Shown: positions 296 to 14,872, counted from the stretch's first letter. The stretch: DNA of 64,000 bases from Candidatus Eiseniibacteriota bacterium (GCA_044223005.1 JBGAML010000022.1:3934-67933); one strand, 5' to 3'. Notes: generated by a model from the letters alone, not told the origin. Program-made: numbers and translations.

Positions 296-856
296 TCACC
301 CGTCCAGCGCCGCGCGCAGCTTGCGGCGCGCGGTCTGCAGCATGCCTCGTGCGCCCGAGATGCCGGGCACGCCGAGGACACGCGTGATGTCTTCGATGCT
401 CATCTCCTCGTAGGCCCGCAACCAGAGCGCCGTCTGTTCTTCCGGAGAGAGCACGTCGCGCATCGCGGCGAGCACGCGCTCCTCGTCGAACTTCCGCTCG
501 GTTCGTTCCTCCGGCGTCTCCGCATCGTCGGAGACGCGTTCGGCTTCTTCCCACTCCACGCGCACCGGACGGCTCCGCCGCAGTTCGGACAGGCAGCGAT
601 TCCGCACGATCGCGAACATCCACGACGACACGCGCGCGCGAGGTTCGAAGCCCGGCAGCGCGCGATGGATGAGCACCAGGCAGTCCTGCGCGAGGTCCTC
701 GGCCAGCTCGCGATCGCGCACCATCCGCCAGCACCAGGCGTAGATGGACGCGCGCCAGCGCTTCAGCAACTCCGACGCCGCCTTCCGGGCCATGTCCGAC
801 CCGGCGGCCGACTGGATCCGTTGGACGAGTTCTTCGTCGCTGCGGAGGTCGGTCAT
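296..856 (-). CDS. ECF-family RNA polymerase sigma factor
   Basis: 186 aa; region 2 motifs AEDLAQD and SWMFAIVRN; region 4 LSPEEQTALWLRAYEEMSIEDITRVLG...ARRKLR. Confidence 0.93.
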   Translation of the reverse strand: MTDLRSDEELVQRIQSAAGSDMARKAASELLKRWRASIYAWCWRMVRDRELAEDLAQDCLVLIHRALPGFEPRARVSSWMFAIVRNRCLSELRRSRPVRVEWEEAERVSDDAETPEERTERKFDEERVLAAMRDVLSPEEQTALWLRAYEEMSIEDITRVLGVPGISGARGMLQTARRKLRAALDG

Positions 857-957: not shown

Positions 958-3645
958 TCACGGCAGGATCGGCAGGATGGCCGGGCCCCGCGGGCGAACC
1001 GTCACCCGGGCCTCGGGATCGCCCCAGAGGACGAAGGCCGCCCAGGCGGCCGGACTGCGGGTCCCGGGATCGGCCGCGAGTTCGCGCCGGGCCGCGCTCA
1101 GGGCGGCCGCGACCGTCTGGCCGCGCTCCAGCTGGCGGTAGAACGCGCGCGAGAACGCGGCGGCGCCCCGGTCGTCGACCGGCCAGATCGAGGACACGAC
1201 CGCCGGCGCCCCGGCGGCGAGGAACGCCGTCGACAGCCCGGAAGCGCCCTCGTTGCCGAACTTGCCGTAGGCGGTGCCGCTGCACGAGGTGAGCACCACG
1301 AGCTTCGCCGCCAGCGGCTGCCCGGCCAGGTCGCGGGCGGTGAGCTGGGCCTCGTCGCTGTCGCCCTTCCCCAGCAGCAGCGCCGAGCTCCAGGGATCCT
1401 CGCGCGGCACGTCGGCATGAGCGGCGACGTGCAGCACGTCCCCGCGCGCGAGCCACGGCGTCACCTGGCCGAGCGGCCGGTCGCCGCCGTGCACGATCCC
1501 GCGCGCGCCGAAGCGGGCCGCGAGCCAGCGCGTCTCCTCCCGCACGCCGGGCAGTTCGCGCCCGGCGGGGCCGGTGGAGCGCGCGACCTGCACGACGCGC
1601 GCATCGCGCACCTGCACCGAACCGCGCGCGCGCCGATGCGCGAGCCAATTGGCCGAGGGCAGGTAGGCGGTCTCGTGATCGTTCGCGCCCGCGGCCCGGA
1701 AGAGCAGGCCGAAGGGCACGATCCCGACCATCGAGCTCGGCACCACGAGTACGCGACGCGACGCGCACAGCCGCTCGTACGCCGGTCCCGCGAGCGTGCG
1801 GCCGATGGCCTCCGTCACCGCACGATCCGGTCCGGAGTCGCTCGTGCGGACGAGCGCCTGCAGGCGTTCGAGCCGCTCGAGCAACGGACCATCGGCGTCG
1901 ATCCAGTGTGCGATGACGCCGCTCCGGTCCACGACGAACGCCAGCGTCGTGTCGTTGCGCGAGCTGTAGAAATCGATCAGCGCTTCGCCGGGCCGCAGCA
2001 CGCGCCCGCGCAGCTCCGCGGACGTGACGAACGTGGCGCTGGAACCCGCCGACCCCGAATCGCGCGCCGAGAGCCGGAACTGCAACGCCCGCGCCTTGAA
2101 GCGCTGCAGTGCGTCGAACGCGTCGGCGGCGCGCGAGGACTCGGTGCCGCCGCGGCGTGGATCGAGCAGGATTCGCGCGGTCTCGACCGAGAGCGAGCCC
2201 GAGCCGTTGCCGATCACCTCGAGCCAGTCGGCGCTGCGCGTGGCGGCGCGGGCGCGTTCCCACGCGCGCGCGCCTTCGCGGGCGGCGAGCGCCGCACCGT
2301 CGAGGTCTCCCAGCTGGCGGCGGGCACGCGCCCGTTCGACCTCGGCCGTGACCCGCGCGGGATCGCGCAGCCCGGGACGGCCGATCGAGGTCTCGAACGC
2401 GGCGAGCGCCGCCAGCGCCTCGGCCGGATGCCCGCAGCTGTTCTCGGCGCGCGCGCGCACGATGCGCATCGCGTCGACGATCGCGCCGCTCTCGGGCAGC
2501 CGGTAGCGAGCCGGCGCCTCGCGCAGCATCGTCCGGCATTCCTCGGCGCGCCGGGTCTCCAGGAGCACGAGGCCGAGCTGGTTCAGAGCGTTCGCCACCT
2601 CGTCGGCGGCGAGCGAGTCGGCGCGCGCCAGCTGCGCCCGCAGGATCTGCTCGGCTTCCGCGTAGCGGTATTGCGCGCGGCGCGCCACCGCGAGCTGCGT
2701 CCGCAGCTCGTCGCGGGCCTCGGCGTCACCGGGCGAAGCGGGGCGTGCGAGCTCGGTCTCGAGCAGCGACACCGCCTCCTCCGTGCGGCCCTGGTTCACG
2801 AGCAGGATGGCGAGGTTGCCGAGCTGCCTCAGGACCGGCCGGCCGGCGCGCCGGTTGAGCGCGAGCGAGTAGCTCCAGAACGCCGCGGCGTGCGCGGGAT
2901 CGCCGTGCTCGGACTCGATCACGCCGAGGTTGTTCCACGCGTCGGCCTCGTCGTAGAGATCGCCGAGCGCGTGGGCGCGAGCGATCACCTCGCGATAGGC
3001 CGCCTTCGCGCCCGCGAGGTCGTCGAGCACGTAGAGGGCACGCGCCAGCCCGACGCGCGCCGAGAACTCGCTCGCTCGCTCGGGCGAACGCTGGAGCAGC
3101 GCGACGGCAGCGCGGTAGCCGGTGGCCGCGGCGCGCGAGCGGCCGGCCTGGAGGTCGAGGTACGCGAGCCCGAGGCGCGCGTTGCCCTCGAGCCCGGGCT
3201 GGCGCAGGGCGCGTGCGAGCGGCAACAGCTGGCGGTAGACCGGCGCGGCGTCCGCGAACCGCGAGCGGAACGCGTGCGCCCGGCCGATCACGAGCAGCGC
3301 GCGCGCCCACGTGAGCGTGTCGCCCATCGCGCGCGCCGCGGAGATCGCGGTCTGCGCGTCGCGCACGGCGTCGTCGTAGCGGCGGAAGAAGACCCACGCG
3401 CTCGCGCGCCGGACCGTGGCCGCGTTTTCGAGCGCGCGATCGCCGTTCGCGTGCGCCGCCGCCACGAGCGAATCGAGCCGGGCGTTCGCCCGCGCGACCT
3501 GGCCACGCGCGTACAGCGTGTCGACCCCGGCGAGCGACGCCTCGATCGCCGCGCGACCGGTCGCGGCGGAGGCAGGCGGTGCGGAGCCCACGACGGCGAT
3601 CGCGAGCAGGGCGAGACACCCGATGAAGACGGATCGGTGGGACAT
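958..3645 (-). CDS. Exported TPR-repeat CHAT-domain (caspase-like) protease
   Basis: N-terminal signal-like sequence, TPR-like helices (AWNNLGVI, LGNLAILL, ALNQLGLV), C-terminal CHAT with VLHVAAHA (His), LVVLTSC (Cys), GLSTAFLAAGA, SIWPVDD, PAAWAAF. Confidence 0.9.
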   Translation of the reverse strand: MSHRSVFIGCLALLAIAVVGSAPPASAATGRAAIEASLAGVDTLYARGQVARANARLDSLVAAAHANGDRALENAATVRRASAWVFFRRYDDAVRDAQTAISAARAMGDTLTWARALLVIGRAHAFRSRFADAAPVYRQLLPLARALRQPGLEGNARLGLAYLDLQAGRSRAAATGYRAAVALLQRSPERASEFSARVGLARALYVLDDLAGAKAAYREVIARAHALGDLYDEADAWNNLGVIESEHGDPAHAAAFWSYSLALNRRAGRPVLRQLGNLAILLVNQGRTEEAVSLLETELARPASPGDAEARDELRTQLAVARRAQYRYAEAEQILRAQLARADSLAADEVANALNQLGLVLLETRRAEECRTMLREAPARYRLPESGAIVDAMRIVRARAENSCGHPAEALAALAAFETSIGRPGLRDPARVTAEVERARARRQLGDLDGAALAAREGARAWERARAATRSADWLEVIGNGSGSLSVETARILLDPRRGGTESSRAADAFDALQRFKARALQFRLSARDSGSAGSSATFVTSAELRGRVLRPGEALIDFYSSRNDTTLAFVVDRSGVIAHWIDADGPLLERLERLQALVRTSDSGPDRAVTEAIGRTLAGPAYERLCASRRVLVVPSSMVGIVPFGLLFRAAGANDHETAYLPSANWLAHRRARGSVQVRDARVVQVARSTGPAGRELPGVREETRWLAARFGARGIVHGGDRPLGQVTPWLARGDVLHVAAHADVPREDPWSSALLLGKGDSDEAQLTARDLAGQPLAAKLVVLTSCSGTAYGKFGNEGASGLSTAFLAAGAPAVVSSIWPVDDRGAAAFSRAFYRQLERGQTVAAALSAARRELAADPGTRSPAAWAAFVLWGDPEARVTVRPRGPAILPILP

Positions 3646-3961
3646 GGGGACTCGAACGGGGGGGGGACGCGTCGGCGTGGGTCCCGGGCGAGGGGTTGAC
3701 CCACCGGAATCCGATGGAAACTAGCGGCTGCCCGGCCCCTCGGCCAGTCGGGACGAACCGGGGCACCCGACCTTCGTCCGCCGGAGCCGAGAATGGGTCA
3801 CACCCGGGGCTTTCGCGAGTAGTTCCCCCATCGGATGCGCGGCCGAGGGGCCTCCTCGCGGCCGACCCACTCGCGACCGGCCGGGCCCGCAGGCCCTCCC
3901 TGGTCGTCGCTGCCGGCCGGGCGCTGCGCGTGCCCACGCCGGCGTGCTCCCGGAGGACACG

Positions 3962-4831
3962 ATGCGACTGGTTCCGCTGGTTCGGTTCGGCTCCCGGCGC
4001 CGCGGCGCCATCGGCGGCGCCCTCGCGCTCGCCCTCGTGGTCCTGATCGGCATCACGGCCGGCGACGTGCATCGTCGCCGCGCGACCGGCCCGATCGAAT
4101 GCGTCTCGACCCAGGTCGCGGAGGCGGCGTCGCTGCCCGGCGGCCCGGACCGCATGGGCATGGTGGACTGGTTCGCCACGCACCCCGAGAACCGCCCCGC
4201 GGTGCGCGCGAGCGCGAACGCCGCGGTCACGGATTCCTTCCTCGTCCAGGGATTCACGTTCGTGCACGCCACCACCGGCCTGCAGGACACGGCGTTCGTG
4301 TTCGAGGGCGACGGCGTGAAGTGGAACTGGGTCGTGGGTTCGCACACGATCACCGACGGCACCGGCGGGCTCGACCCGAATGCGGGGTTGATGTTCGACG
4401 CGGCCAGCTCGACGTTCGCGCGCTCGTTCACGTTCTTCTTCCCCACCGCCGGCGTGTATCCCTTCTTCTGCCGCATCCACGAGACCTTCGGCATGAAGGG
4501 CGTCGTGGTGGTGAAGCCCCATCCCGCCGGCGTCGCGCCCGGCGCCGCCGGCGGCGAGGGCTTCGCGCGACCGCCATTCCCGAACCCGGCGCGGGGCTCG
4601 TCCAGCTTCCGGCTCGCGATGGCGCGCCCGGGCCGGGTCGCGCTGACGATTCTCGACGCGCAGGGCCGTCGCGTGGCGACCGTGCTCGACGGCGACCACG
4701 CCGCCGGCACGTTCGACGCCACGTGGAACGGGCTCACCGCTGCCGGCCGCACCGCCGCGCCCGGGCGTTACCTCGCCCGGCTCGAGATGCCCGGCCTGAT
4801 GCAGACGCGCGCGCTCACCCTGATTCGCTGA
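3962..4831 (+). CDS. Secreted cupredoxin (type 1 copper) protein with C-terminal FlgD-Ig-like domain
   Basis: GGAGG before ATG 3962; N-terminal hydrophobic segment; GSHTIT...YPFFCRIHETFGMKGVVVV supplies His/Cys/His/Met ligands; PFPNP...ILDAQGRRV...WNG...GRYLARL tail. Confidence 0.8.
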   Translation: MRLVPLVRFGSRRRGAIGGALALALVVLIGITAGDVHRRRATGPIECVSTQVAEAASLPGGPDRMGMVDWFATHPENRPAVRASANAAVTDSFLVQGFTFVHATTGLQDTAFVFEGDGVKWNWVVGSHTITDGTGGLDPNAGLMFDAASSTFARSFTFFFPTAGVYPFFCRIHETFGMKGVVVVKPHPAGVAPGAAGGEGFARPPFPNPARGSSSFRLAMARPGRVALTILDAQGRRVATVLDGDHAAGTFDATWNGLTAAGRTAAPGRYLARLEMPGLMQTRALTLIR

Positions 4832-4887
4832 CCCCCTCACTCACCCGATCGCGCGGGACGGCCGGATGCCGTCCCGCCGGAGGATCC

Positions 4888-6123
4888 ATGCGTTCGATCG
4901 CTCGCGCGCTGGTCGCGCTGGCGCTGTGCTCGATGGTGCTCCCCTGGACCGCACGCCGCGGCGAGGGCCTGCCGCTCTACGCCGCGCGCACGGGCCTCAT
5001 GTGCCAGAGCTGCCACTTCGATCCCAACGGCGGTGGGCCGCGCACCGACTTCGGCTTCGCCTTCGCGAGCCATCGTCACACGATCGAACCCGAGACGACC
5101 GGCACCTGGAAGGACCTCGCGCTCACGAACCGCGTCTCGGAATCGATGCCGGTCTACTTCGGCCTCGACCAGCGATTCATGCTGCTCTCGAACGCGAACG
5201 TCACCTCGTCGCCGGCCGAGCGCGCGGGCTTCTTCAACATGGAGAACGCGCTCTACGTGTCGTTCCAGCCGCACCCGCGGCTGGCCCTCGTCTACAGCCG
5301 CGACGCCTTCAACGACGCGACGCTGGCGCAGGACGCGTTCGGCGTGATCTCGGGCTTCCCGCTCGACGGCTACCTGAAGGCGGGCCGCTTCCGCACGCCG
5401 TTCGGCCTGCGCATGGACGATCACACCGTGGCCACGCGCGAGGGCTACCTGAACCTCACGGGCGGGCCCGCGTTCCTGCCCTATGATCCTCGCTTCCCCG
5501 ACATGGGCGTCGAGATCGGCGGCGACCATGGCAGCGTCTTCGGCCGCGCAGCGTTCACGAACGGCAATTCCAACGTCTTCGGGCCGCAGCCCTTCGCGCA
5601 CACCGCCACCGCCAAGCTCGGCGTCAACCTGCCGTGGGTGCAGACCGCGGTCTCGGTGCACGACGACTACGAGAAGAACGCCAAGTTCCCCTTCCGCCGC
5701 GCACGGCGCTGGAGCACGTACGCGCTCACGCACTGGAAGCGGCTGGTGTTCATCGGCGAAGTGGGCGCGGGCACCGACGACTTCGCGAAGAAGGACATCC
5801 GCGGCGCGCACAACAACCTGCTCGCGGGCTTCGGCGAGATCGACTGGACGGTGAACCGCGCGCTCAACCTGCGCGTGCGCGCCGACCACCTGGAGACCAG
5901 CCGTGACGGCACGGAGTTCACGCGCCCGGACGGCTCGATGGTGTCGATCCAGGACGTGAGCTCGTTCGATCGCTGGTCGCTGGAAGGCGAGATCCTCCCC
6001 GTTCCGTTCGGCGAGATCCGCGCCTCGTACCGCGTCATCTCGCCCGTCGCGAAGACCGACATCGCGGGCGAGAAGGTCCGCACCGAGCGGCAGGGCTACC
6101 TGCAGTTCCACTTCAGCTACTAG
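4888..6123 (+). CDS. Cyc2-like monoheme cytochrome c fused to an outer-membrane beta-barrel
   Basis: GGAGG before ATG 4888; signal peptide, then LPLYAARTGLMCQSCHFDPNGGGPRTDFG with a single CxxCH; remainder is amphipathic beta-strand-like and ends YLQFHFSY (aromatic terminal residue). Confidence 0.72.
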   Translation: MRSIARALVALALCSMVLPWTARRGEGLPLYAARTGLMCQSCHFDPNGGGPRTDFGFAFASHRHTIEPETTGTWKDLALTNRVSESMPVYFGLDQRFMLLSNANVTSSPAERAGFFNMENALYVSFQPHPRLALVYSRDAFNDATLAQDAFGVISGFPLDGYLKAGRFRTPFGLRMDDHTVATREGYLNLTGGPAFLPYDPRFPDMGVEIGGDHGSVFGRAAFTNGNSNVFGPQPFAHTATAKLGVNLPWVQTAVSVHDDYEKNAKFPFRRARRWSTYALTHWKRLVFIGEVGAGTDDFAKKDIRGAHNNLLAGFGEIDWTVNRALNLRVRADHLETSRDGTEFTRPDGSMVSIQDVSSFDRWSLEGEILPVPFGEIRASYRVISPVAKTDIAGEKVRTERQGYLQFHFSY

Positions 6124-6292
6124 GCGGCACTTTCCGCGCTCCACGGGAGTGTCACCCACCGCGGCGCGGCCGGTCTTCGGACCGCGCCGCGCCGTGCGCT
6201 ATCCTGACGGCCGCGTTCCCCCGCCCCGGCGTTCCGGGGCACCACCGTCCGCGCGCTCGCGCGCGCTCACGTGCCGCAGGAGTGTCGCTCGC

Positions 6293-6820
6293 ATGTCCGC
6301 CCCGAATCCCTCGCCGCGTCGCGCCCCGTCTCCCTGGCTCTGGCTGCTGCTCGTCCCGGTCGCGCTGATCCTGGGCCGCGTGGTCGGCGGCATGAACGTC
6401 TCGCCCGTGCATCACGGCACCGCGACCGAGTCGGCGGCGGCCGGCGGCGTGCGCTGGACGTCGCTCGCCGACGCCGAGGCGGAGGCGAAGCGCACGGGCA
6501 AGCCGGTACTCTACGACTTCAACGCCGACTGGTGCCCGCCCTGCCAGGCGATGAAGCACCAGATGTTCGAGAATCCCGCCGACGCGCGCGCGATCGAAGC
6601 GGTGGTCGTGCCCGTCTCGGTCGTGGACCGCTACAAGGAGAATGGCGCCAACCCGCCCGAGATCGAGGCGCTGCAGCAGCGCTTCCAGATCTACGCGTTC
6701 CCGACGCTGATCGTGCTCTCGCCCACCACCGGCCGGTTCGTGAAGCGCGAAGGCTTCGACGGCGCCGCATCGACGCGCGAGTGGATCGCGCAAGCGGCGG
6801 CGAGCCTGAAATCGTCGTAG
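6293..6820 (+). CDS. Membrane-anchored thioredoxin-family protein
   Basis: AGGAG before ATG 6293; N-terminal TM; KPVLYDFNADWCPPCQAM and cis-Pro loop AFPT. Confidence 0.85.
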   Translation: MSAPNPSPRRAPSPWLWLLLVPVALILGRVVGGMNVSPVHHGTATESAAAGGVRWTSLADAEAEAKRTGKPVLYDFNADWCPPCQAMKHQMFENPADARAIEAVVVPVSVVDRYKENGANPPEIEALQQRFQIYAFPTLIVLSPTTGRFVKREGFDGAASTREWIAQAAASLKSS

Positions 6821-6832
6821 CGCGCGGAACGT

Positions 6833-6875
6833 GAAACGGCGCCGGCCCCACGCGGGGCCCGGCGCCGTTTCGTTT
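6833..6875. terminator. Probable bidirectional intrinsic terminator
   Basis: GAAACGGCGCCGGCCCC acgc GGGGCCCGGCGCCGTTTC followed by GTTT, between convergent genes. Confidence 0.75.
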
Positions 6876-6886
6876 CCGCGTCGGGA

Positions 6887-9800
6887 TCAGCGAACGCGCG
6901 TCACGCGCGTGCCGACCTCTCGGCCCATGGCCTCGAGCCGGACGAAGTAGACGCCCGCGGGCGTGGGGACGCCCTGGCCGTCGTTGCCGTCCCAGAGCAG
7001 CTCCTGGGGACCCGCGGGGCGCCAGCCGTCGACCAGCGTGCGCACGCGGCGGCCCTGCACGTCCTGCACGGTGAGCCGCGCCATGCCCCCGTGCGGCAGC
7101 GTGAAGCTGAGCCGGCTGCCGCCGCGCGTGGGATTCGGCGCACCGGGCGCGAGCGCGACCAGTTCCGCGGCGTCGACCGCGGGCTCCACCGCGAGCACGG
7201 GGCCGTTCATGCGGAAGTCGCCTTCGTTGACGCCGTTGCCCGGCATCGAGAACCACGGCGTGCGCGGGAAGTAGGGCGACTTGGAGAGGATCCGCGCGCG
7301 CCAGTGCGACGGATCGTTCACCGCGGCGCTGCTCGCTGCGAGACCCATCGGGAATGGCGCACCGAGATCGGCGAGCCCCCACGCGGTGAGCGTCGTGCCG
7401 CTGCCGTTCATCACCTGGTTGCGACCCTTGAGCTCCATCTGCATGCGCACGCGGCCGCGACCCTTCGCGGTCCACGGCCGCAGCTCGCCATAGATCCCGG
7501 GCGATGCCGCGCGGCCGAGCGTACTGACGGTCGTGAGCAGGCAGAGGCTCGGGCACGCCTGGTACTGGAAGATCTGCCGCGGGATGCCCTGCTGGTTGCC
7601 GAGGTAGAGCGCGGCATGCCCGGCGCGGTAGTCGAAGAAGCTCACGTCGTAGCCCGGCTCGCCCACCATCACGTCGGCGAAGCCGTCACCGTTCACGTCG
7701 CCCGCAGGCGCCACGATGTGGCCGACGTTGCTGTAGGGCGCGAGGCCGTCCACGGTCCACGAGGCGTTGGCCGCGAGGCCGGCCGCGCCGCCGCGGTAGA
7801 GGTAGACGCGCCCGCAGTCGGGACCACCCGCGCCGTCGTGGAAGACCGCGCCCACCAGCAGGTCGGTGAAGCCGTCGTCGTCCACGTCGCCCGCGCTGGA
7901 GATGGCGGCACCGTAGCCGTCGTAGGCTTCGTCGCCGTCGTGGGCCCACGACGCCGTCGCCGGCAGGCCGAAGGCGCCGCCGAAGAAGGCCTCGACGCGG
8001 CCGGCATCGACGATCGACGAATCCCAGCCGTTGAAACCGACCAGAACGTCGGAGAAGCCATCGCCGTTCACGTCCGCCATCGCGGTCGAGGCGCCGAAGA
8101 GCGCGGAGTTCTGGCCCGTCACCGTGTGCGTCCAGCCCACCTCGTGGCGGAGCCCCTTCTCGCCCGCGAGATTGCCGTCGGCGATGCCGTAGTAGAGCGA
8201 GACGCGGCCCGCGTCGGTGTCGGTGCCGTTGTCCCAGCCCGATGCGCCCACCACCAGGTCGCTCAGGCCGTCGCGGTTCACGTCGCCACCACCCGCGACC
8301 GACGAGCCGAACTGCGCGCCCGCCTGGCCACCCGAGTCCGACCACGCGGGCGTCGCCGCAAGCGTGCCGCCCTGGCCGAGGTAGACGCACGCATAGCCCT
8401 GGTCCGTCAGCGTGCCGTCGTAGCCCGACGCGCTGACGAAGATGTCGCCGAGACCGTCGCCGTTCAGGTCACCTGCCGAGCCGCAGCGGTAGCCGAAGTA
8501 GCTCGTGGGCCCGGGGCCGGAGGCGGACCAGATCGCGCTGCCCGCGGGCAGGCCACCGAGGTTGCCCTTCCACATCTGCACGCGGCCGATGTTGTTCCAC
8601 GTGTGCGAGGCGACGAGCAGGTCGCCGTAGCCGTCGTTGTTCACGTCGCCCGCGGGCGCGACGCACACGCCCATGTTCTCGCCCGCCACCGCGCCCAGGC
8701 GCTGCCACGACGGACTCGCCGCCACGCCGGTCGCGTTGCCGTAGTAGACGAACACCGCGCCGCCGTCGGCCGAGCCCGCGTCCCAGCCGGGCGCGCCGAC
8801 GGCCACGTCGCCGTAGCCATCGCCGTTCACGTCGCCGACACCGGACACGGACCAGCCGAGCACGTCCTGCGCGAGCTGGCCGTACGCGTTCCACGTCGCC
8901 GTGGTGGAGATGCCCTGCGAGCCGCCCAGGTAGCAGTAGGCCGCGCCGGACTTGAGCGTCGAGCCGTTGAGGTTCGAGTAGCCGGCGCCGACCAGCACGT
9001 CGCTGAAGCCGTCGCCGTTCACGTCGCCCGCGGTGGCCACCACGTTGGCGAACAGGTCGGTCGTGACCGCGGTCGTGACGCTCCAGATCGGCGATGCGTT
9101 GAACGCGCCGGGGCCACCGCCGTAGACGAACGCGGTGCCGGGGCCGCCGAACACGGGCTCGCCCACGAGCAGGTCCGCGTAGCCGTCGCCGTTCACGTCG
9201 CCCGCGGTGGCGACGCTGCTGCCGAAGTAGGCGTTCGCGACGTTGGATTCGAGCAGCGCGGGCGCGTGGTCGAGGCCGCTGCCGCTGCCATGGTAGATCG
9301 CGATGCGGCCTTCGAACGCCTGGCCACCCGCGAAATTGGGCGCGCCGATGCAGAGGTCCGAGTAGCCGTCGCCGTTCATGTCGCCGATGCCGCAGACCGT
9401 GTAGCCCCACTTGGAATAGATCTGGCCGTCGGTCTCGATCCACGAGGGCGAGAGCGTCGGCAGGTAGGGCGACGCGGCGCTGCCGTGGAACACGTACGTG
9501 TAGCCGATCAGCGTCGGCACCGCCGGCGCGCCGATGAAGACGTCGTCGTAGCCGTCGCCGTTCACGTCGCCGGCGCAACCCACCGACCAGCCGAACTGGA
9601 GCGCGAGGCTGTTCGACTCGAACTGCCACGTCGCCGTGCTCTGCAGCGGCGGGATGGAACCGCCCACGAACAGAAACGCGGCGCCTTCGCGGTCGGTCGG
9701 GTTGGTCCAGTGCGGCGCGCCCACGATCACGTCGGCGAAGCCGTCGCCGTTGACGTCGCCCGCGGTCGAGACGCAGTCGCCGAAGTAGGCGTTGGCGAGT

Positions 9801-10903
9801 CCGCCGCCACGGATCCACGTGGGCGTGGTCGAGAGGCCGCCCGAGCCGCCCAGGTAGGCGAACGCGGCACCCTCGTCCGTGAACGAGACGTCGTAGAGGA
9901 ACGCGCCCACGAGCACGTCGTCGTAGCCGTCGTTGTTGACGTCGCCCGCGGTCGAAACCGACACCCCGTAGCAGGCGCCGAGCTGGTTGCCGCGCTGGAA
10001 CCACGCCGGCGAGGTCGAGAGTCCGTTGGGCCCGCCCAGGTAGACGAACGCCGCGCCCTCGTTGACGAAGGTCTGGTCGTACTGCCACGCGCCCACGATC
10101 ACGTCGCTGTAGCCGTCACCGTTCACGTCGCCGGCCGTGGCCAGCGCCATGCCGAACTGCATGTCGGCCTGCGAGCCCTGCAGCGTGGCCTGCGGCGTGG
10201 TCGCGAGCGGGTCGACGGTGAGCGGGTAGGCCGCGCCCGCATCGTCGACGCGGATCTCGAGACCGCGCGCCGTGCGCGCGAAGGCGGCCGGCACGTCCTC
10301 GCCCGCGGCGTCGATCACGTGCAGCTGCGCGTAGAAGAACGCCGTGGCCCCGTCGGGCGCGTGGAAGGTGGCGCTGCGGCCGTCGGCGGCGACGTCGACC
10401 GCGCCTGCGCCGGAGGCGTCGAGCGCCAGTACGACCGGTTCGCGCCGCGCGCCGGACTCGGGGGCGCGGCGCAGCACGAAGCCCTGCTCGAGGCCCGCGC
10501 GGTCGTTGGCGAACCACTCGGTGGCGTCCAGCGCCTCGCGGTCGGACCACACGCGACCGTTCTCGTGCCGCAGGCGGCCCTCCGGCACGGCGGCCACGTT
10601 CGCGCCGCGGCCGAGCGCGGTCCACGCGAGCCGGATCGAGAAGGCCGAATCACCGCGCGTGCGCGAGGTGAGCGAAGCGCCCGCACGATCGATCGCGACG
10701 CGCAGGTCCTGCGCGCGGTTGGGCGCGGTCCAGCCCTCGCCCGCGGCGGTGAACTCGTATTCACGTGCCAGCAGCGCGGCGCGCGCGGCGGCGGTCCAGC
10801 TGGAATCGGGCGTGACGGCAGCGGGATGGTGCGCGGCCGGCGAGGCGAACGCCGCGGATGCGGCGAGCGACAGGGCGGCGAGGACGGCGGGGATGGTCCG
10901 CAT
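6887..10903 (-). CDS. Large secreted FG-GAP (integrin-alpha-like beta-propeller) protein with C-terminal FlgD-Ig-like domain
   Basis: Signal peptide; N-terminal domain ending YPLTVDP; 14 GDVNGDG-type Ca-binding repeats counted; tail GAPNP...DVQGRRVRTL...WDG...GVYFVRL. Confidence 0.9.
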   Translation of the reverse strand: MRTIPAVLAALSLAASAAFASPAAHHPAAVTPDSSWTAAARAALLAREYEFTAAGEGWTAPNRAQDLRVAIDRAGASLTSRTRGDSAFSIRLAWTALGRGANVAAVPEGRLRHENGRVWSDREALDATEWFANDRAGLEQGFVLRRAPESGARREPVVLALDASGAGAVDVAADGRSATFHAPDGATAFFYAQLHVIDAAGEDVPAAFARTARGLEIRVDDAGAAYPLTVDPLATTPQATLQGSQADMQFGMALATAGDVNGDGYSDVIVGAWQYDQTFVNEGAAFVYLGGPNGLSTSPAWFQRGNQLGACYGVSVSTAGDVNNDGYDDVLVGAFLYDVSFTDEGAAFAYLGGSGGLSTTPTWIRGGGLANAYFGDCVSTAGDVNGDGFADVIVGAPHWTNPTDREGAAFLFVGGSIPPLQSTATWQFESNSLALQFGWSVGCAGDVNGDGYDDVFIGAPAVPTLIGYTYVFHGSAASPYLPTLSPSWIETDGQIYSKWGYTVCGIGDMNGDGYSDLCIGAPNFAGGQAFEGRIAIYHGSGSGLDHAPALLESNVANAYFGSSVATAGDVNGDGYADLLVGEPVFGGPGTAFVYGGGPGAFNASPIWSVTTAVTTDLFANVVATAGDVNGDGFSDVLVGAGYSNLNGSTLKSGAAYCYLGGSQGISTTATWNAYGQLAQDVLGWSVSGVGDVNGDGYGDVAVGAPGWDAGSADGGAVFVYYGNATGVAASPSWQRLGAVAGENMGVCVAPAGDVNNDGYGDLLVASHTWNNIGRVQMWKGNLGGLPAGSAIWSASGPGPTSYFGYRCGSAGDLNGDGLGDIFVSASGYDGTLTDQGYACVYLGQGGTLAATPAWSDSGGQAGAQFGSSVAGGGDVNRDGLSDLVVGASGWDNGTDTDAGRVSLYYGIADGNLAGEKGLRHEVGWTHTVTGQNSALFGASTAMADVNGDGFSDVLVGFNGWDSSIVDAGRVEAFFGGAFGLPATASWAHDGDEAYDGYGAAISSAGDVDDDGFTDLLVGAVFHDGAGGPDCGRVYLYRGGAAGLAANASWTVDGLAPYSNVGHIVAPAGDVNGDGFADVMVGEPGYDVSFFDYRAGHAALYLGNQQGIPRQIFQYQACPSLCLLTTVSTLGRAASPGIYGELRPWTAKGRGRVRMQMELKGRNQVMNGSGTTLTAWGLADLGAPFPMGLAASSAAVNDPSHWRARILSKSPYFPRTPWFSMPGNGVNEGDFRMNGPVLAVEPAVDAAELVALAPGAPNPTRGGSRLSFTLPHGGMARLTVQDVQGRRVRTLVDGWRPAGPQELLWDGNDGQGVPTPAGVYFVRLEAMGREVGTRVTRVR

Positions 10904-11046: not shown

Positions 11047-11925
11047 CTACTCGCGCCCGAGGAAGAGGAACCCGGCCGCCACGATCAACATGGCGCCCGC
11101 GACGCGCGGCACCAGCCGTTCCTCGGCGAAGAGCTTCCCGCCGAACAGCGAGGCGTACACGATGCTCGTGCGCTTGACCGCGAGCACCAGTGCCACCGGT
11201 CCCACGCGCGTGGCCTGCAGCTGGAAGAAGCGGTACCCCAGCGTCAGCACCGCGATCGCCACCAGCAGCGGCCACTGCTCGCGCGCGCCACGGCCCAGCG
11301 CCGCCCACGGCGTGCGGCGCACCGCGAGCACCGCGCCGAACACGAGCGCGTAGACGACGTGCTGGTGGAAGAGCACCACGTTGGGCGGCACCTTCATACC
11401 GCCGACCAGGAGCTTGTCCGCCACCGAGGAGATCGCGAACAGGAGCAGCGCCCCGATCATCCATCGCTGCCGCGGCGCCCAGAGCGCCTCGCCCAGTGCG
11501 CGCGGGCCCGCGACGCCGGCGCGCATCTCGAGCGCCCACGTACCCGCGACCATCAGCGCGAGCCCGATCCACTCGCCGCCGTGGAGACGCTCGCCGATCA
11601 GCAACTGCGCGAGCACGGCGGTGACGGCGGGCGTCAGCCCCATGAGCGGCAGGGCGCCGCTGATGGGGCTGCGCTCCAGCGTCATCATCACGAACAGGAA
11701 CGCGACGCCCCCGAGGACGCTCTTGCCCCACAGCACGCCCAGCGCGCGGGTGCTCAGCGCGAACGCGGGCGTCGTGAACGGCACCCACGCCGAGCACGCC
11801 AGGATCACGAGCGAGACGAGGAACGAGAACTCGAGCGCGTGCAGGCCGCGCAGCGTCTTCTTCTGGGCGATCGCCGCGGCGGCCGAGAGCACCGCCGACA
11901 CGGACGCGAGCGCGATCCAGTTCAT
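11047..11925 (-). CDS. EamA/DMT-family transporter
   Basis: 292 aa, about 10 TM segments in two repeats (GERL..GEWIG; AEERL..RVAG); 10 bp downstream of the TonB-dependent receptor. Confidence 0.88.
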   Translation of the reverse strand: MNWIALASVSAVLSAAAAIAQKKTLRGLHALEFSFLVSLVILACSAWVPFTTPAFALSTRALGVLWGKSVLGGVAFLFVMMTLERSPISGALPLMGLTPAVTAVLAQLLIGERLHGGEWIGLALMVAGTWALEMRAGVAGPRALGEALWAPRQRWMIGALLLFAISSVADKLLVGGMKVPPNVVLFHQHVVYALVFGAVLAVRRTPWAALGRGAREQWPLLVAIAVLTLGYRFFQLQATRVGPVALVLAVKRTSIVYASLFGGKLFAEERLVPRVAGAMLIVAAGFLFLGRE

Positions 11926-11935
11926 GCCGCCTCCC

Positions 11936-14248
11936 TCACCACCCGAACGTCGCCGAGAGCGTCCAGTCCTGCCCGGGCTCGTCCTTCACGAGGCCGCGCA
12001 GCGTGGACAGGTGCAGCCGGTACGAGCGATCGAACACGTTCTCGACGCCCGCGTGCAACTGCAGCGAGCCGCCACCCGCGGCGACGGGCACGCTCGCGAA
12101 GCGCACGGCCCACGTGGTCCAGCCGGCCGTCGCGCTCTCCCCCGCGGCCGGGTTGCCCTGCGTGTGCTGCGCGTCGGCGACCACGCGGAGCGTTCCCGAA
12201 CCGGGTGCGTCCCACGCGAGTTCGGCCTCGCCCGTGAGCGGCGCGACCTGCGGCAGGTTGGCGTGCAGCTTCGTGTCCTCGCCGCGTACGCAGGCGACGG
12301 ACGCGCGCGCCACCAGTCGCCGCGCGAGCCGCTGCTCGGCCGTTCCCTCGAACCCGTAGAGCCGCGCGTGTCCGATGTTCGACTTCACGAACGCCGCGCG
12401 CGACTGGAACGTGCCCGGCGTCTCGGCGACCAGGTTGGTGAGCCGGTTGCCGAACGCGTCCAGCTGCAGCCGCGTACGCTCGGTCTCCAGCCGCGCGCCC
12501 ACGTTCAGCGACACGCTGCGCTCGGGCTGCAGGTCCGGATTGCCCACGTGCAGGCTGCTGCCGAGGTCGAGGTACTGGAAGCGCTCCTCGAGCGTCGGCG
12601 AGCGGAACGCGGTGGCGAGCAGCACCGATGCCGAGAGCGGCTTCGCGAGCGCGACGTGCAGGCCCGTGCTGGCGCTCCACGACGCGTCGTGGGTCGTGCG
12701 CGCGTCCCAGAGCACGCTCTGTCCGGGCACCGGGATCTGCGGGACACCGTTCACGTACAGCGCCTCGGGATTGAGTGTGCGGTCGTTGGTCGTGCGGTTG
12801 CGGTCGTAGCGGCCGCCGATCACCACCCGCGCCCGCTCGGGCACGACGTTCCACTCCTCCTGCAGGTAACCGCCGCCCGACAGGAAGCGGCCGAACGGTA
12901 CGGGGCGTTCCACGAACTCGCGGTGCAGCGCCTTGAGCCAGCGTTCGCGGTGGCTGTCCATGGTGCGCTGCCAGAGATCCGCGCCCACGATGAGCAGGTG
13001 TCCTCGCGCCGGCGCGAGGCGTGCTTCCAGCTCGCCGCTCCACGTGGTGTGCGTCGCGTGCGGCGTCACCGTGACGACGGGCGACTGGATCAGCTCGACG
13101 TCGCGCTCGATCGCGGTGCGCGAGGCGCGCGCGGTGACGAGCGGCACGCGCGACGAGGGGTTCGGCAGCACGTACTCGAGCCCGAACATCTCGCGGCGCG
13201 CGAGCGTGTAGCGCACGGCGGCGGTCGCGCCGAACGGCGAGCCGCCCGGGATGCCGGTGTCCCCGGCCTGCATGCGCTGCCAGAGCGCGGTCAGCGTCTG
13301 GCGGCCGATCGTGCGCAGGGCGAGCGAGGCGTTGCCGCTCGCGTCGTGCCACTGCGAGTGCGGCACGGCGCCGCGCGGCGTCATGGTCTCCGCCGCGCGC
13401 CGCAACCCGCCGCTCACGCGCAGCGCGTGGCGGTCGCCGGCGTGCTCGATCGCCGCCCAGTGCGAGACGCCGTCGTCCACGCTGCTCACGGCCTCGTTCC
13501 ATTCGAGCGAGGCGCGCGTGTGGTCCGAGAACGCCGCGCGGCGCGTCACCATCTGCACCGCACCGCCGAGCGAGCCGGATCCGAAGAGTACCGAGCCGGC
13601 GCCCTTCATGACCTCGATGCGCTCGAGGTCGAGCACGTTGACGAGCGGCAGTGTGCCCGCATGTTCGGTGGAGGTCTCGATGCGCGTGTTGTCCACCAGC
13701 GCGACCACGCTGTTCTTCCCCAGCCCGCGGATCGAGAGCCCCGTGCCCCACGTGCCGTCACGCACGAGCGCGAGTCCCGGCAGATGCGCCGCGGCGTCGG
13801 CCGCGCCGATCGCGGCGCGATCGCGCATCGCGTCGTCGCCCAGCGTGACCGCCGCGTACGGCAGCGTTCGGAGGTCCGCGCTCGAGCGGGCGCTGCGCAC
13901 CACCACCTCGCCCTGGCGATAGAGCGCCGGGCGGAGCTCGAACACGAGCGGCGTGTCGCCGGTCATCGCCACCGTGCGGTCGGCGTCGGCGTAGGCCACG
14001 TGGTGCACGGACACCGTCCACGTGCCCGGGGCGAGCGAGCGGAACGTGAAGCGGCCGTCGGCGTCGGTGCGCACGGCCTGGCCGCTCTCGCGCAGCCGCA
14101 CACGCGTGCCCTCGATCGGGTGGCCGGTCGCGTGATCGACGACGCGGCCCGAGAGCACGGCCGCGAACGCGGTGGATGCCGTGAGCAGCGCGGCCAGCGT
14201 GCCCACGAGCGCCAGTGCGCGCGCGAGCGCCCAGGAGCGGAACGTCAT
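11936..14248 (-). CDS. TonB-dependent outer-membrane receptor
   Basis: Start re-picked at ATG 14248 (MTFRSWALARALAL, GAGG upstream); N-terminal SGRVVD...TDADGRF domain; plug SIRGLG...ERIEVMKGAGSVLFGSGSLGG; GNPDLQPERS, GVENVFDRSY; terminal FGW. Confidence 0.93.
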   Translation of the reverse strand: MTFRSWALARALALVGTLAALLTASTAFAAVLSGRVVDHATGHPIEGTRVRLRESGQAVRTDADGRFTFRSLAPGTWTVSVHHVAYADADRTVAMTGDTPLVFELRPALYRQGEVVVRSARSSADLRTLPYAAVTLGDDAMRDRAAIGAADAAAHLPGLALVRDGTWGTGLSIRGLGKNSVVALVDNTRIETSTEHAGTLPLVNVLDLERIEVMKGAGSVLFGSGSLGGAVQMVTRRAAFSDHTRASLEWNEAVSSVDDGVSHWAAIEHAGDRHALRVSGGLRRAAETMTPRGAVPHSQWHDASGNASLALRTIGRQTLTALWQRMQAGDTGIPGGSPFGATAAVRYTLARREMFGLEYVLPNPSSRVPLVTARASRTAIERDVELIQSPVVTVTPHATHTTWSGELEARLAPARGHLLIVGADLWQRTMDSHRERWLKALHREFVERPVPFGRFLSGGGYLQEEWNVVPERARVVIGGRYDRNRTTNDRTLNPEALYVNGVPQIPVPGQSVLWDARTTHDASWSASTGLHVALAKPLSASVLLATAFRSPTLEERFQYLDLGSSLHVGNPDLQPERSVSLNVGARLETERTRLQLDAFGNRLTNLVAETPGTFQSRAAFVKSNIGHARLYGFEGTAEQRLARRLVARASVACVRGEDTKLHANLPQVAPLTGEAELAWDAPGSGTLRVVADAQHTQGNPAAGESATAGWTTWAVRFASVPVAAGGGSLQLHAGVENVFDRSYRLHLSTLRGLVKDEPGQDWTLSATFGW

Positions 14249-14872
14249 GGAACCTCGGAGTCGCCGCCCGCAAGAGGCGTGGGGATCGTCCGGAGCCCGC
14301 GGAGGGTGCGGTGGTTCGCACGGCGGCGCGGAGGCGCGGCGCGGCGGGCGCTGCGGACGAGGATCGGGGCGGACGGCATGGATGAAAGCCCACGAACGGC
14401 GTGGGAGTCGGTGTCGGAACTCGGGGCCGAATGCACGCACGCGGCCTGCCGATACGCTAACAGAGGCCCCGGAGGAGAACCACCACATGCGTCGCATCAC
14501 ACGCATCCGTCGCGAGCACGCGCGCGAGCGCGCGGATCGTGCGCACCCGCGCCGCGAGCGGTCCGAACGCATGCGCGCCGCCGTGCGACACGTGCGCGCG
14601 ATGTGCACCGACGTTATCCGGCGAGGAACGACGCGACGCATTCCGGCAGGCCTCGCGACCGCGATCCACGCGTTGCGAAACGCGGACCGCGTCAGCGCAG
14701 CGTCAAGCGTGCGGCGCGCGGCTGTGGCGCGCACGTCGCGGGTGCTACGCTCTCTTCGTCGCACTTCCGTGTGCGCGCGGCACGACGCCGCGCGGACGAA
14801 CCTGTCCGCGATCGCGCCTCGCGCGGAGCGCACGTGACGTCGCGACAGGGTGGCGATAAGGGCGAGGATCAC

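Follow-up and report, generated by a model that had tools for sequence, protein, structure and literature searches.

What might a gene for a blue-copper protein be doing immediately upstream of a gene that encodes a c-type cytochrome fused to an outer-membrane porin, and does the thioredoxin gene behind them belong with the pair? We examined these questions for three genes of a Candidatus Eiseniibacteriota bacterium that lie near one end of the window, by which we mean the whole 64,000-nucleotide stretch of DNA that was analysed. Metagenome surveys take Cyc2, a cytochrome-porin, as the marker gene of iron oxidation at neutral pH, and Cyc2 homologues recur in heterotrophs, with no established role there (passages of PMC6344600 and PMC9769843).

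Gene order and transcription signals

Reading of the sequence places genes 1, 2 and 3 on the plus strand (table 1), co-oriented just as the initial annotation had described them. The start of gene 3 given in the table was preferred on GC3 grounds and is most likely the true one, rather than an upstream GTG at 6149.

Table 1. Features of the locus, in window coordinates.
Feature	Position	Strand	Description
gene 1	3962..4831	+	blue-copper (type 1 Cu) protein, 289 aa; ATG behind GGAGGA
copper ligand codons	4343..4495	+	H128 (4343), C170 (4469), H173 (4478), M178 (4493)
gene 1 C-terminal domain	4571..4828	+	likely type IX secretion sorting domain; Pfam FlgD_ig, genome recurrence, PorU
gene 1–gene 2 spacer	4832..4887	+	56 nt; GGAGGA ahead of the gene 2 ATG
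gene 2	4888..6123	+	predicted monohaem cytochrome c fused to a 16-strand outer-membrane porin, 411 aa; ATG
haem module signature P29–R52	4972..5043	+	PLYAARTGLMCQSCHFDPNGGGPR; CxxCH at 5002–5016
porin barrel, residues 88–411	5149..6120	+	AlphaFold2 strands; conserved alignment columns
hairpin directly 3' of gene 2	6160..6197	+	stable
gene 3	6293..6820	+	membrane-anchored thioredoxin-fold protein, 175 aa; CPPC at 6533–6544
GC-rich hairpin 3' of gene 3	6832..6872	.	A-run and U-run flanks; convergent genes either side

Are the three genes closed by one terminator, as had been proposed? The hairpin that follows gene 3 is strong (−51.6 kcal/mol, z −5.4, with none of 200 shuffles equally good) and is probably a two-way terminator; to that extent the proposal stands. 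But a second stable hairpin lies right after gene 2, so that closure of all three genes by a single terminator is not established, and a consensus scan of positions 3600–7000 for promoters and terminators returned no site, leaving the hairpin behind gene 3 uncalled as well. Folded whole, as a segment of 175 nt, the spacer between genes 2 and 3 reaches −100.1 kcal/mol (z −3.7). In a metatranscriptome library a single contig, 222 nt long, is identical to positions 4785–5006 (0 differences) and spans the junction of genes 1 and 2, a weak hint that these two share a transcript; the library covers those positions only, and the uncovered remainder carries no information. The four sequencing runs were compared as contigs, which give neither depth nor strand nor transcript ends. 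The DNA runs show joints and loose ends that seem to come from other strains or organisms.

The neighbouring products are an ECF sigma factor, a CHAT-TPR protein, a thioredoxin, an FG-GAP protein and an EamA transporter, with no cyc1-type cytochrome c4 or cox gene among the neighbours of the gene pair. Elsewhere in the genome there are two COX1 genes (contigs C8 and C11) and, on contig C30, the cytochrome c assembly genes.

The initial annotation counted the thioredoxin as part of the module, possibly aiding attachment of haem to the porin-cytochrome. Gene 3 does follow gene 2 in the same orientation; its product is membrane-anchored and has a thioredoxin fold (Pfam Thioredoxin_7, 44.2 bits) with a CPPC motif. 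But the DsbE/CcmG models score far below their cut-offs (19.5 against 359; 18.3 against 123), gene 3 has paralogues at other places in the genome, and the assembly genes are on another contig. A tblastn search found no gene 3 homologue beside the porin in any of 146 related loci, among them the closest with 2–3.5 kb of downstream sequence (L071, L073 and L001), and the 169-nt spacer that separates it from gene 2 bears the stable hairpin. This is the weakest of the readings considered here, and we regard it as very improbable. We conclude that gene 3 is a bystander, a neighbour outside the conserved unit.

Gene 2 and the Cyc2 superfamily

The N-terminus of gene 2 reads MRSIARALVALALCSMVLPWTARRGEG-LPLYAARTGLMCQSCH. 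By eye it has the charged start, hydrophobic run and small-residue end of a signal peptide, a pattern shared by all 25 aligned orthologues. The single CxxCH is CQSCH (C39–H43), set in a haem module signature that is invariant or nearly so across the orthologue alignment, and the protein ends in HFSY. Among 90 full-length cluster representatives all retain the N-terminal CxxCH (at residues 27–74), five have a second one, and nearly all have an aromatic C-terminal residue. From this motif the protein is predicted to carry covalently attached haem.

The AlphaFold2 model has 16 long strands, spread over residues 88–410, with pLDDT mostly 70–93 in the barrel and below 50 in the haem module (residues 17–84). 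Foldseek matched the model to 16-strand porins, namely VhChiP, OmpT, OprP (2o4v, E 4.4e-11), OprO (4rjw, E 2.8e-9) and OmpF, with a best E of 1.9e-12. The signal peptide, CxxCH and barrel-like region noted earlier are thus all present, and the structure prediction that had been suggested as a check returned a 16-strand porin fold. A porin-cytochrome complex of the 26-strand MtrB/PioB type was considered and set aside, gene 2 having a 16-strand barrel with the haem module in the same chain. The barrel has a conserved loop, PFGLRxDDHT, which includes H179 (5422); that residue, M118 (5239) and H408 (6109) may be considered as candidates for the second haem ligand. Gene 2 matched no Pfam or NCBIfam family at E up to 0.1, and its family profile no PDB sequence at E up to 10; relatives in the ESM Atlas fall into clusters automatically named ‘porin family protein’ or ‘hypothetical’, without Pfam.

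If gene 2 is built like a Cyc2, is it one? Keffer et al. 2021 (PMC8406198) define Cyc2 by a signal peptide, CXXCH, PXFAR[Q/K][T/Y], PXL, a 16-strand OprO/OprP-like porin and a length of at least 365 aa. Gene 2 has the signal peptide, a lone N-terminal CXXCH, a 16-strand porin of the OprO/OprP kind and 411 aa. The architecture that the initial annotation had likened to Cyc2, a monohaem cytochrome c fused to a porin, is therefore what we find. The motifs are another matter. In gene 2 the first is replaced by PLYAART, and none of 293 haem-bearing relatives has PXFAR[Q/K][T/Y] upstream of the haem site; none of the same 293 has PXL behind it (CxxCH-x(3-5)-PxL), gene 2 reading CH-FDPNGGGPR. What they have is CxxCHxxPxGG (269 of 293), in a post-haem segment, invariant F/V-D/N-P-x-G-G-G-x-R, that is three residues longer than that of Cyc2. 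A position-by-position motif census was made over 121 cluster representatives. The earlier hunch that FDPNGGG marks a separate family has thus held up.

The profile comparison complements the motif census. Aligned with hhalign, the superfamily profile and a profile of motif-bearing proteins matched at 99.4% (E 1.4e-21, 345 columns), taking in the haem module and the barrel, i.e. the whole length; the motif-bearing profile comprises six proteins of the same phylum with strict Cyc2 motifs, a set defined by motif and not validated by experiment. This homology to motif-bearing Cyc2-type proteins is clear over the full length despite the failure of the motifs. From sequence comparison we take gene 2 to represent a variant branch within the Cyc2 superfamily. 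By analogy with Cyc2 it might oxidize Fe(II); our literature search found no experimental study of any member of the branch.

Motif-bearing Cyc2-type genes occur at 39 places in 35 of the 201 sampled genomes of the phylum, and a search of the window's own genome gave no match to them. NCBIfam has no match for the three such proteins that were scanned. Run against a large protein collection, the superfamily profile retrieved, among the 120 matches listed, only close Eisenbacteria relatives with uninformative names.

The blue-copper protein and its linkage to the porin

Gene 1 has the complete set of type 1 copper ligands that had been claimed for it: H128, C170, H173 and M178, with the spacing C-x2-H-x4-M, invariant in 12 of 12 aligned relatives. 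A hydrophobic N-terminal signal or anchor is followed by the cupredoxin (about residues 66–195) and by an Ig-like, sorting-type domain (about 204–289). Pfam Copper-bind scores 20.7 bits against a cut-off of 21.2; among PDB sequences the family profile finds plastocyanin (E 1.1e-6), amicyanin and pseudoazurin (E about 1e-3 for the last two), and the source record of one relative calls it plastocyanin. The AlphaFold2 model of the cupredoxin part is of low confidence (pLDDT about 45–66), and Foldseek found no cupredoxin match for it.

Does the copper protein go with the porin? In the window's clade (SH-aLRT 95–99) a cupredoxin of the gene 1 type adjoins the porin in 6 of 6 testable loci, with differing flanking genes. 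In a second clade the partner is a cupredoxin of a different type, a small lipoprotein with a visible lipobox that the gene 1 probe does not match, again in 6 of 6 testable loci; at one of these (L077) a further cupredoxin lies 4 nt downstream. In a third clade (L025, L098, L144) a gene 1-type cupredoxin lies downstream of the porin, and in a distant clade a small monohaem cytochrome c stands directly downstream in 4 of 4 loci. Redox carriers thus recur beside the porin. On the porin tree the presence or absence of a cupredoxin changes at least four times. A genome search found the cupredoxin domain in 74 of 201 genomes (a word-based search had returned 6 proteins only, an under-count), while the two genes are adjacent, among the sampled species genomes, only in the window's own and two others (G000, G181, G121).

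The synteny that the initial annotation had asked to see is therefore present in the window's clade and in two others, but it is no general feature: in 73 of 106 judgeable rows the porin gene sits behind hydantoinase A/B genes and ahead of GH3, with no cupredoxin or other redox partner near. The link is real but clade-limited. A complex prediction of porin residues 26–411 with cupredoxin residues 62–190, run without controls, scored 0.00 and speaks neither way on binding. A functional tie to the hydantoinase genes was considered and dropped; we read that arrangement as conserved gene order only.

The same distribution invites a more prosaic explanation. The gene 2 family is found in 169 of 201 sampled genomes of the phylum (102 of the 121 of high quality), its public relatives are mostly titled Candidatus Eisenbacteria, and it is single-copy in the window's genome. 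To our knowledge the phylum is not known for iron oxidation, and near-universal presence there fits a housekeeping role as well: a general channel, whose haem would be structural, sensing or protective (against Fe(II) or peroxide, for example). The cupredoxin neighbour would then be a by-product of relocation, and the porin gene has indeed moved, since its ancestral slot between hydantoinase and GH3 now holds a lipoprotein gene. The dominant context is non-redox, and three genomes of the same genus (G008, G048, G095) carry both genes on different contigs. A mere by-product, though, does not sit well with adjacency in three clades involving at least two cupredoxin types and the repeated changes of state, with a pair that stays together while its flanks change, or with a monohaem cytochrome c in the same place in a distant clade. 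We consider a housekeeping haem-porin an unlikely explanation of the pair.

What of the rest of gene 1? The initial annotation overlooked its C-terminal domain of about 85 residues. Pfam FlgD_ig scores 37.4 bits there (cut-off 27); TIGR04183 reaches 15.1, below its cut-off of 23, and matches of the gene 1 profile to gingipain C-terminal domains are weak (E 0.012–0.022). All Foldseek matches of the gene 1 model are Ig-like or PorU-type and are driven by this domain, the best being PorU itself (6za2). Its 94 other matches in the genome all sit at the extreme C-terminus of their frame, and every full-length relative of gene 1 has it. In the genome the models of PorU (490.9 bits, cut-off 420) and SprA both score above their thresholds, and about 45 other frames match the C-terminal part of the PorU model itself. 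Taken as a sorting signal of the type IX secretion kind, the domain suggests that the gene 1 protein is probably exported to the cell surface. An analogy with the periplasmic rusticyanin is weakened by that domain. In our literature search no paper described a cytochrome-porin neighboured by a blue-copper protein that carries a type IX secretion signal.

Might the pair then form a conduit at the surface, with copper outside and haem inside? An exported, surface-anchored cupredoxin would meet extracellular donors or acceptors (iron, manganese, humic quinones, oxidants) and relay electrons by way of the porin haem. The strictly C-terminal domain, its retention in all full-length relatives and the PorU and SprA genes favour this, as does the lipoprotein nature of the second clade's cupredoxin; lipoproteins of this superphylum can also be surface-exposed. 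But export of gene 1 is a prediction, weakened by the sub-threshold TIGR04183 and faint gingipain scores. In a porin the N-terminus is expected to face the periplasm (parts of PMC13692758), and the haem module with it; a surface protein would be a long way off unless the haem lies deep in the barrel, and the position of the haem is not readable from the gene 2 model. Such a conduit strikes us as improbable. Equally doubtful is a wider proposal that joins it to the family evidence: in a lineage of Eisenbacteria the displayed cupredoxin wired to the haem porin would be a two-metal conduit, copper outside and haem in the membrane, whose partners outside the cell would be iron, manganese, humic matter or oxidants, and the branch would be a phylum-wide sister family of Cyc2, so far unnamed, defined by CH-x-x-P-x-GGG-x-R together with PFGLRxDDHT and having its own haem environment.

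A possible redox unit and its known counterparts

How, then, might genes 1 and 2 work together? The haem of Cyc2 exchanges electrons with small dissolved species that enter the pore. Starting from the Cyc2-type architecture, fold and homology of gene 2, the conserved copper ligands of gene 1 and the clade-level linkage, we lean towards a two-gene redox unit, in which a Cyc2-superfamily haem porin is paired with a type-1 copper electron partner. The gene 2 haem would exchange electrons with dissolved species in the pore, with Fe(II) the likeliest substrate by analogy; the gene 1 protein would be its electron partner, and electrons would pass on to the aerobic respiratory chain, for which the genome encodes two haem-copper oxidases. 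The pair would thus serve iron oxidation or some other electron transfer. The constancy of the pair in 6 of 6 loci of its clade amid differing flanks supports this reading, as do the COX1 and cytochrome c assembly genes. Against it count the lack of both published Cyc2 motifs, the many orthologues (73 of 106) that lack a nearby redox partner and the few genomes with adjacent genes, and the lack of cyc1- or cox-type neighbours. The sorting domain, too, implies a surface location, unlike that of a rusticyanin-style periplasmic shuttle, and the haem module and cupredoxin domain are both low-confidence models.

The branch is of interest whichever reading holds. It would be discarded by the published motif screen, yet some five in six of the sampled genomes carry it, in a phylum widespread in soil and wastewater, and it lies repeatedly beside copper or haem electron carriers. 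Should it oxidize iron, surveys that use the screen would overlook it. Otherwise the cytochrome-porin design has further uses, a caution against taking every Cyc2-like match as iron oxidation. A type IX-secreted blue-copper protein beside a cytochrome-porin, if true, would represent a surface redox component of a new kind.

Which known systems does the pair most resemble? The Cyc2 iron oxidases of Acidithiobacillus ferrooxidans (Cyc2), Mariprofundus (Cyc2PV-1) and Ghiorsea (Cyc2TAG1_1) have, according to sections of PMC8406198 and PMC13692758, the same signal peptide, lone CXXCH, 16-strand barrel and length of about 400 aa. Gene 2 differs from them in having PLYAART for PXFAR[Q/K][T/Y], no PXL, and a PFGLRxDDHT loop of its own. 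The published Cyc2 tree, as described in part of PMC8406198, left out sequences without the motif. Closer to hand are the motif-bearing genes of the same phylum (L148–L153), which share with gene 2 their length, their architecture, whole-length homology at about 17% identity and a pattern A-x-P-x-aromatic-A...R...G at equal distance from the first Cys; in 5 of these 6 loci the preceding gene encodes a di- or pentahaem cytochrome c, not a cupredoxin.

The porins OprP, OprO, VhChiP and OmpF (PDB 2o4v, 4rjw, 5mdq and 1opf) have the same 16-strand fold (E 1.9e-12 to 2.8e-9), but share only 7–12% identity with gene 2 and have no haem module; OprP and OprO are reported as structural relatives of Cyc2 too (PMC8406198, in part). 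The rus operon of Acidithiobacillus, with the order cyc2-cyc1-cup-coxBACD-rus (excerpts of PMC10654088), likewise encodes an outer-membrane cytochrome-porin with a blue-copper protein. Here, in contrast, cyc1 and cox genes do not adjoin the pair, the copper protein is plastocyanin-like rather than a rusticyanin and bears a sorting domain, and the source is an uncultured wastewater bacterium of neutral pH. Outside the acidophiles a Cyc2 homologue and a cupredoxin are discussed together, in connection with extracellular electron uptake, for the biocathode organism ‘Candidatus Tenderia electrophaga’ (parts of PMC5371394).

Haem-porin architecture and relation to Cyc2

How does the haem-porin encoded by gene 2 compare with Cyc2? 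The protein has 411 residues and a signal-peptide-like start; its only CxxCH lies in the stretch LPLYAARTGLMCQSCHFDPNGGGPR and its C-terminus is HFSY. It has no family match in Pfam or NCBIfam, and the profile of its family matched none of the PDB sequences. AlphaFold2, run with 25 orthologues, predicts 16 long strands forming a barrel (residues 88–410, pLDDT mostly 70–93), preceded by a haem module (residues 17–84) at pLDDT below 50. In Foldseek the barrel matches porins with 16 strands, namely VhChiP (1.9e-12), OprP (4.4e-11), OprO (2.8e-9) and OmpF, so that the barrel proposed in the initial annotation is borne out at the level of prediction. PMC8406198 names OprO and OprP as structural relatives of Cyc2.

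A word-based search returned 558 relatives, every one unnamed or ‘hypothetical’. An exhaustive search of cluster representatives (50% identity) gave 585 clusters at E ≤ 0.001, 171 at 1e-10 and 29 at 1e-30; gene neighbourhoods were compared for the Eisenbacteria part of this CxxCHxxPxGG superfamily only. Among the 150 representatives listed, 90 are 340–450 residues long; within these listed matches the N-terminal CxxCH (residues 27–74) is present in 90 of 90, and an aromatic last residue with His four positions earlier in nearly all. From 121 representatives we derived the haem signature A-[LV]-P-x-[YF]-A-x-R-x-G-x-x-C-x-x-C-H-[VF]-[ND]-P-x-G-G-G-x-R-x-x-[FY]-G; a second conserved stretch, G-x-F-x-x-P-[FY]-G-L-R-x-D-D-H-T, lies downstream. 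One Met, M118, and two His, H408 and H179, the latter part of the DDHT loop, are nearly invariant. Scanning species genomes with patterns specific to the gene 2 branch gave 69 loci, 49 with Candidatus Eisenbacteria titles, five with other phylum names and 15 with no name. The family is matched in 169 of 201 sampled genomes of the window’s phylum (102 of the 121 of high quality), and the window’s genome has a single copy. The 201-genome tallies for haem-porin, cupredoxin domain and Cyc2-motif pattern take in one unpublished genome (G014), on which alone no claim rests. Three other c-type cytochromes of the window’s genome, one with five CxxCH sites, one large multihaem and one dihaem, start with a haem module resembling the porin N-terminus and have no barrel.

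In the definition of Keffer et al., Cyc2 proteins are 365 residues or longer and combine a signal peptide and only one CXXCH with a 16-strand porin; AXPXFAR[Q/K][T/Y] precedes the haem site and PXL follows it. Sequences without the upstream motif were taken out of their tree (PMC8406198). The gene 2 protein has this architecture but lacks both motifs. Neither motif occurs in any of the 293 haem-bearing relatives collected, 269 of which carry CxxCHxxPxGG, and the earlier suspicion that FDPNGGG marks a separate family holds in the form of a distinct branch.

Does the phylum also contain motif-bearing genes? We searched the same 201 genomes with the degenerate DNA pattern PxFAR[QK][TY]-x3-5-CxxCH, using the reversed pattern as control. 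The pattern was found at 39 places in 35 genomes and its reverse at none; the window’s genome has no match. Six motif-bearing proteins examined are 397–439 residues long, carry PXL, end in an aromatic residue or Leu, and typically start I-P-V-F-A-R-K-Y-G-F-N-C-T-M-C-H-S-N-M-P-R-L-N-D-F-G. At the motif-bearing loci L148–L153 (genomes G163, G088, G154, G182, G032 and G002), a dihaem (~345 residues) or pentahaem cytochrome c lies immediately ahead in five of six. The profile alignment of the gene 2 superfamily with the six proteins spans 345 columns (probability 99.4%, E 1.4e-21, 17% identity), from the signal peptide through the last strands, with a three-residue gap at GGG. Because this alignment is full-length, we conclude that the two groups are homologous across haem module and barrel. 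Judged by sequence, the gene 2 protein is part of a separate branch, present in the phylum alongside motif-bearing Cyc2-type genes. The FeGenie ‘Cyc2’ matches reported in Eisenbacteria genomes (PMC9769843) may be of either branch.

The flanking genes

The genome holding the window comprises 4.5 Mb in 35 contigs. The window has a G+C content of about 72%, and DNA nearly identical to it is present in bioreactor, wastewater and sludge metagenomes of several studies. Genes 1 and 2 are separated by 56 nt, genes 2 and 3 by 169 nt. The initial annotation described three co-oriented genes closed by one terminator; the co-orientation stands, but the single terminator is doubtful, since the spacer after gene 2 also folds into a stable hairpin and a consensus terminator scan made no call, despite a very strong hairpin that separates gene 3 from the convergent FG-GAP gene.

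Features of the window and of related sequences (window coordinates unless a contig, C, of its genome or a related locus, L, is named)
Feature	Position	Strand	Remark
ECF sigma factor	296–856	-	
CHAT-TPR protein	958–3645	-	895 aa; divergent from genes 1–3
Gene 1, cupredoxin	3962–4831	+	ATG, GGAGGA ahead
RNA-library contig	4785–5006		222 nt
Gene 2, haem-porin	4888–6123	+	ATG, GGAGGA ahead
Gene 3, thioredoxin-fold	most likely 6293–6820	+	
Hairpin	6832–6872		-51.6 kcal/mol, z -5.4
FG-GAP repeat protein	6887–10903	-	1338 aa; convergent on genes 1–3
EamA transporter	11047–11925		
TonB-dependent receptor	11936–14401	-	
Hydrogenase-like kinase (candidate)	14873–16858	+	661 aa
Second thioredoxin	C2:2384–2947		~1 kb before window start
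Cytochrome c assembly match	C30:84554–85120	-	in-frame TGA
Barrel-less cytochromes	C16:183277–188304; C18:2906–5692; C4:42194–44026		
Hydantoinase B–GH3 slot	C5:297822–303774		
Monohaem cytochrome c	L053:5203–5670; L058:6139–6585; L059:6139–6600; L060:3511–3957		beside distant paralogues
Secreted protein, 166–177 aa	L071:4860–5393; L072:1920–2450; L073:4821–5348; L117:702–1202	-	

One sludge metatranscriptome contig is identical to the end of gene 1, the spacer and the start of gene 2. The expression data are at contig level only; since DNA can be present in libraries of this kind, and one contig is no proof that both genes are on one transcript, this is at most a weak hint of co-transcription. 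The ECF sigma factor and TPR-CHAT genes upstream do not recur beside the porin in related loci; the one exception is a weak ECF-sigma match in L068, the most distant of the compared loci, where it lies 2.5 kb upstream. Farther downstream in the window, a TonB-dependent receptor with an N-terminal carboxypeptidase-regulatory-like domain adjoins the EamA transporter gene. A further protein combines two 4Fe-4S motifs, the iron-only-hydrogenase large-subunit domain Fe_hyd_lg_C (153 bits), HisKA and HATPase_c; its domain composition suggests a hydrogenase-like histidine kinase with a sensory role.

In the gene 1 product (289 residues) a hydrophobic stretch at the N-terminus is followed by a cupredoxin domain, which scores 20.7 bits against Pfam Copper-bind (cut-off 21.2). 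The family profile, built from 12 relatives, matches plastocyanin (1.1e-6), amicyanin and pseudoazurin. In the alignment of these relatives H128, C170, H173 and M178 are invariant, confirming the complete set of type 1 copper ligands first noted. The structure model of the cupredoxin part is too uncertain for use.

What is the C-terminal domain of gene 1? Pfam FlgD_ig recognises the last ~85 residues (37.4 bits). At least 94 more copies of the domain are encoded in the genome, 94 of 94 ending at the stop codon expected of a strictly C-terminal domain, which points to a large set of type IX cargo proteins. The type IX components PorU (490.9 bits, cut-off 420) and SprA (above cut-off) are present, the PorU model, in its C-terminal part, also recognises dozens of the genome’s sorting-type tails, and PorU is the best structural match of the gene 1 model; on the other side, TIGR04183 scores below cut-off on the domain. 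We suggest that this is a type IX sorting domain. Because of the strictly C-terminal copies, the machinery and both kinds of match to PorU, the cupredoxin is likelier to be type IX cargo than not. The neighbouring FG-GAP repeat protein carries the same domain.

The thioredoxin-fold protein encoded by gene 3 is membrane-anchored and contains a CPPC motif (Thioredoxin_7, 44.2 bits); it is closer to the DsbD C-terminal domain and DsbH than to CcmG. Its orientation had placed it in a three-gene module, possibly aiding haem attachment. Against this, tblastn found a gene 3 homologue beside the porin in none of 146 loci, including the closest relatives with 2–3.5 kb of downstream sequence; gene 3 has paralogues elsewhere in the genome, and the genes for cytochrome c assembly are on a different contig. 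Such a module is highly improbable, and we treat gene 3 as a neighbour only. The window’s own contig carries another thioredoxin of this type, 43% identical to gene 3, and further paralogues lie on contig C23. Of the two cytochrome c assembly matches, one has an in-frame TGA; the cause could be a frameshift, an assembly error or the presence of two genes.

Linkage of cupredoxin and haem-porin

Is the pairing of genes 1 and 2 conserved? The comparison took in 68 related loci of species genomes and 78 of metagenome contigs, 146 in all, and 122 full-length porins were placed on a tree. In the majority context hydantoinase A and B lie directly upstream of the porin (73 of 106 rows with a judgeable upstream flank), a convergent GH3 gene usually lies downstream and no cupredoxin is nearby. 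Most relatives have the porin gene between hydantoinase B and GH3. In the window’s genome a 222-residue lipoprotein gene, on the opposite strand, fills this ancestral slot, and we conclude that the porin gene has relocated.

The window’s clade on the tree also contains L001, L071, L072 and L073 (SH-aLRT 95–99); the partial loci L117 and L141, which share 76–80% identity with the window protein, were left out of the tree because of their short length. A gene-1-type cupredoxin lies directly upstream of the porin, 36–124 nt away, in all six loci of the clade with enough flank, while the outer flanks vary (FtsK, BNR and acyl-CoA dehydrogenase genes versus CHAT and FG-GAP genes). In a neighbouring clade of eight rows (SH-aLRT 100) a different type, a lipoprotein cupredoxin of 126–129 residues, is divergently upstream in six of six testable loci; those of L080 and L139 exceed the Pfam cut-off. 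L077 has a third kind 4 nt downstream (Cupredoxin_1, 37.8 bits). The third clade (L025, L098, L144) has a gene-1-type cupredoxin downstream of the porin. At least four changes of cupredoxin state are required on the tree. A clade of distant paralogues (35–38% identity) has instead a monohaem cytochrome c of 148–155 residues directly downstream (4/4 loci), 1 nt away in L053, L058 and L059 by our own gene calls. In four relatives the cupredoxin–porin pair is accompanied by a conserved secreted protein, which has no Pfam match and no homologue in the window’s genome.

On the other hand, several observations speak against tight coupling. The cupredoxin domain occurs in only 74 of 201 genomes; among sampled species genomes it adjoins the porin only in the window’s own, G181 (L001) and G121 (L025); and the same-genus genomes G008, G048 and G095 carry the two genes on different contigs. 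The cupredoxin linkage holds for the window’s clade and two others, but not for the majority context. Might gene 2 be a housekeeping haem-porin with an incidental cupredoxin neighbour? The majority context and the loose coupling fit such a role, the recurrent pairing in three clades speaks against it, and we consider it rather unlikely.

A possible redox pair and known systems

We lean slightly towards genes 1 and 2 forming a redox pair, in which the haem-porin, a member of the Cyc2 superfamily, would exchange electrons with a dissolved species, the copper protein would be its partner and the electrons would pass to an aerobic chain; the genome has two COX1 genes. By analogy the likeliest dissolved species would be Fe(II); iron oxidation specifically, granted the redox pair, is possible rather than probable. 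The type IX signals would also accommodate a copper–haem conduit formed by the two proteins at the surface; this seems to us improbable.

How does the proposed redox pair compare with what is known? Cyc2-like genes in diverse heterotrophs (PMC6344600, PMC9769843) and a Cyc2–rusticyanin operon (PMC10654088) are already in print. Among the matches listed, our literature search found neither the motif-variant branch nor a type IX-sorted cupredoxin partner described. Two points appear to be new: the definition, from sequence, of a motif-variant, phylum-wide branch shown to be homologous to motif-bearing proteins of the Cyc2 type, and a cupredoxin partner whose C-terminal domain is of the type IX sorting kind. 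Rusticyanin works in the periplasm; the gene 1 cupredoxin, if type IX cargo, would be on the cell surface.
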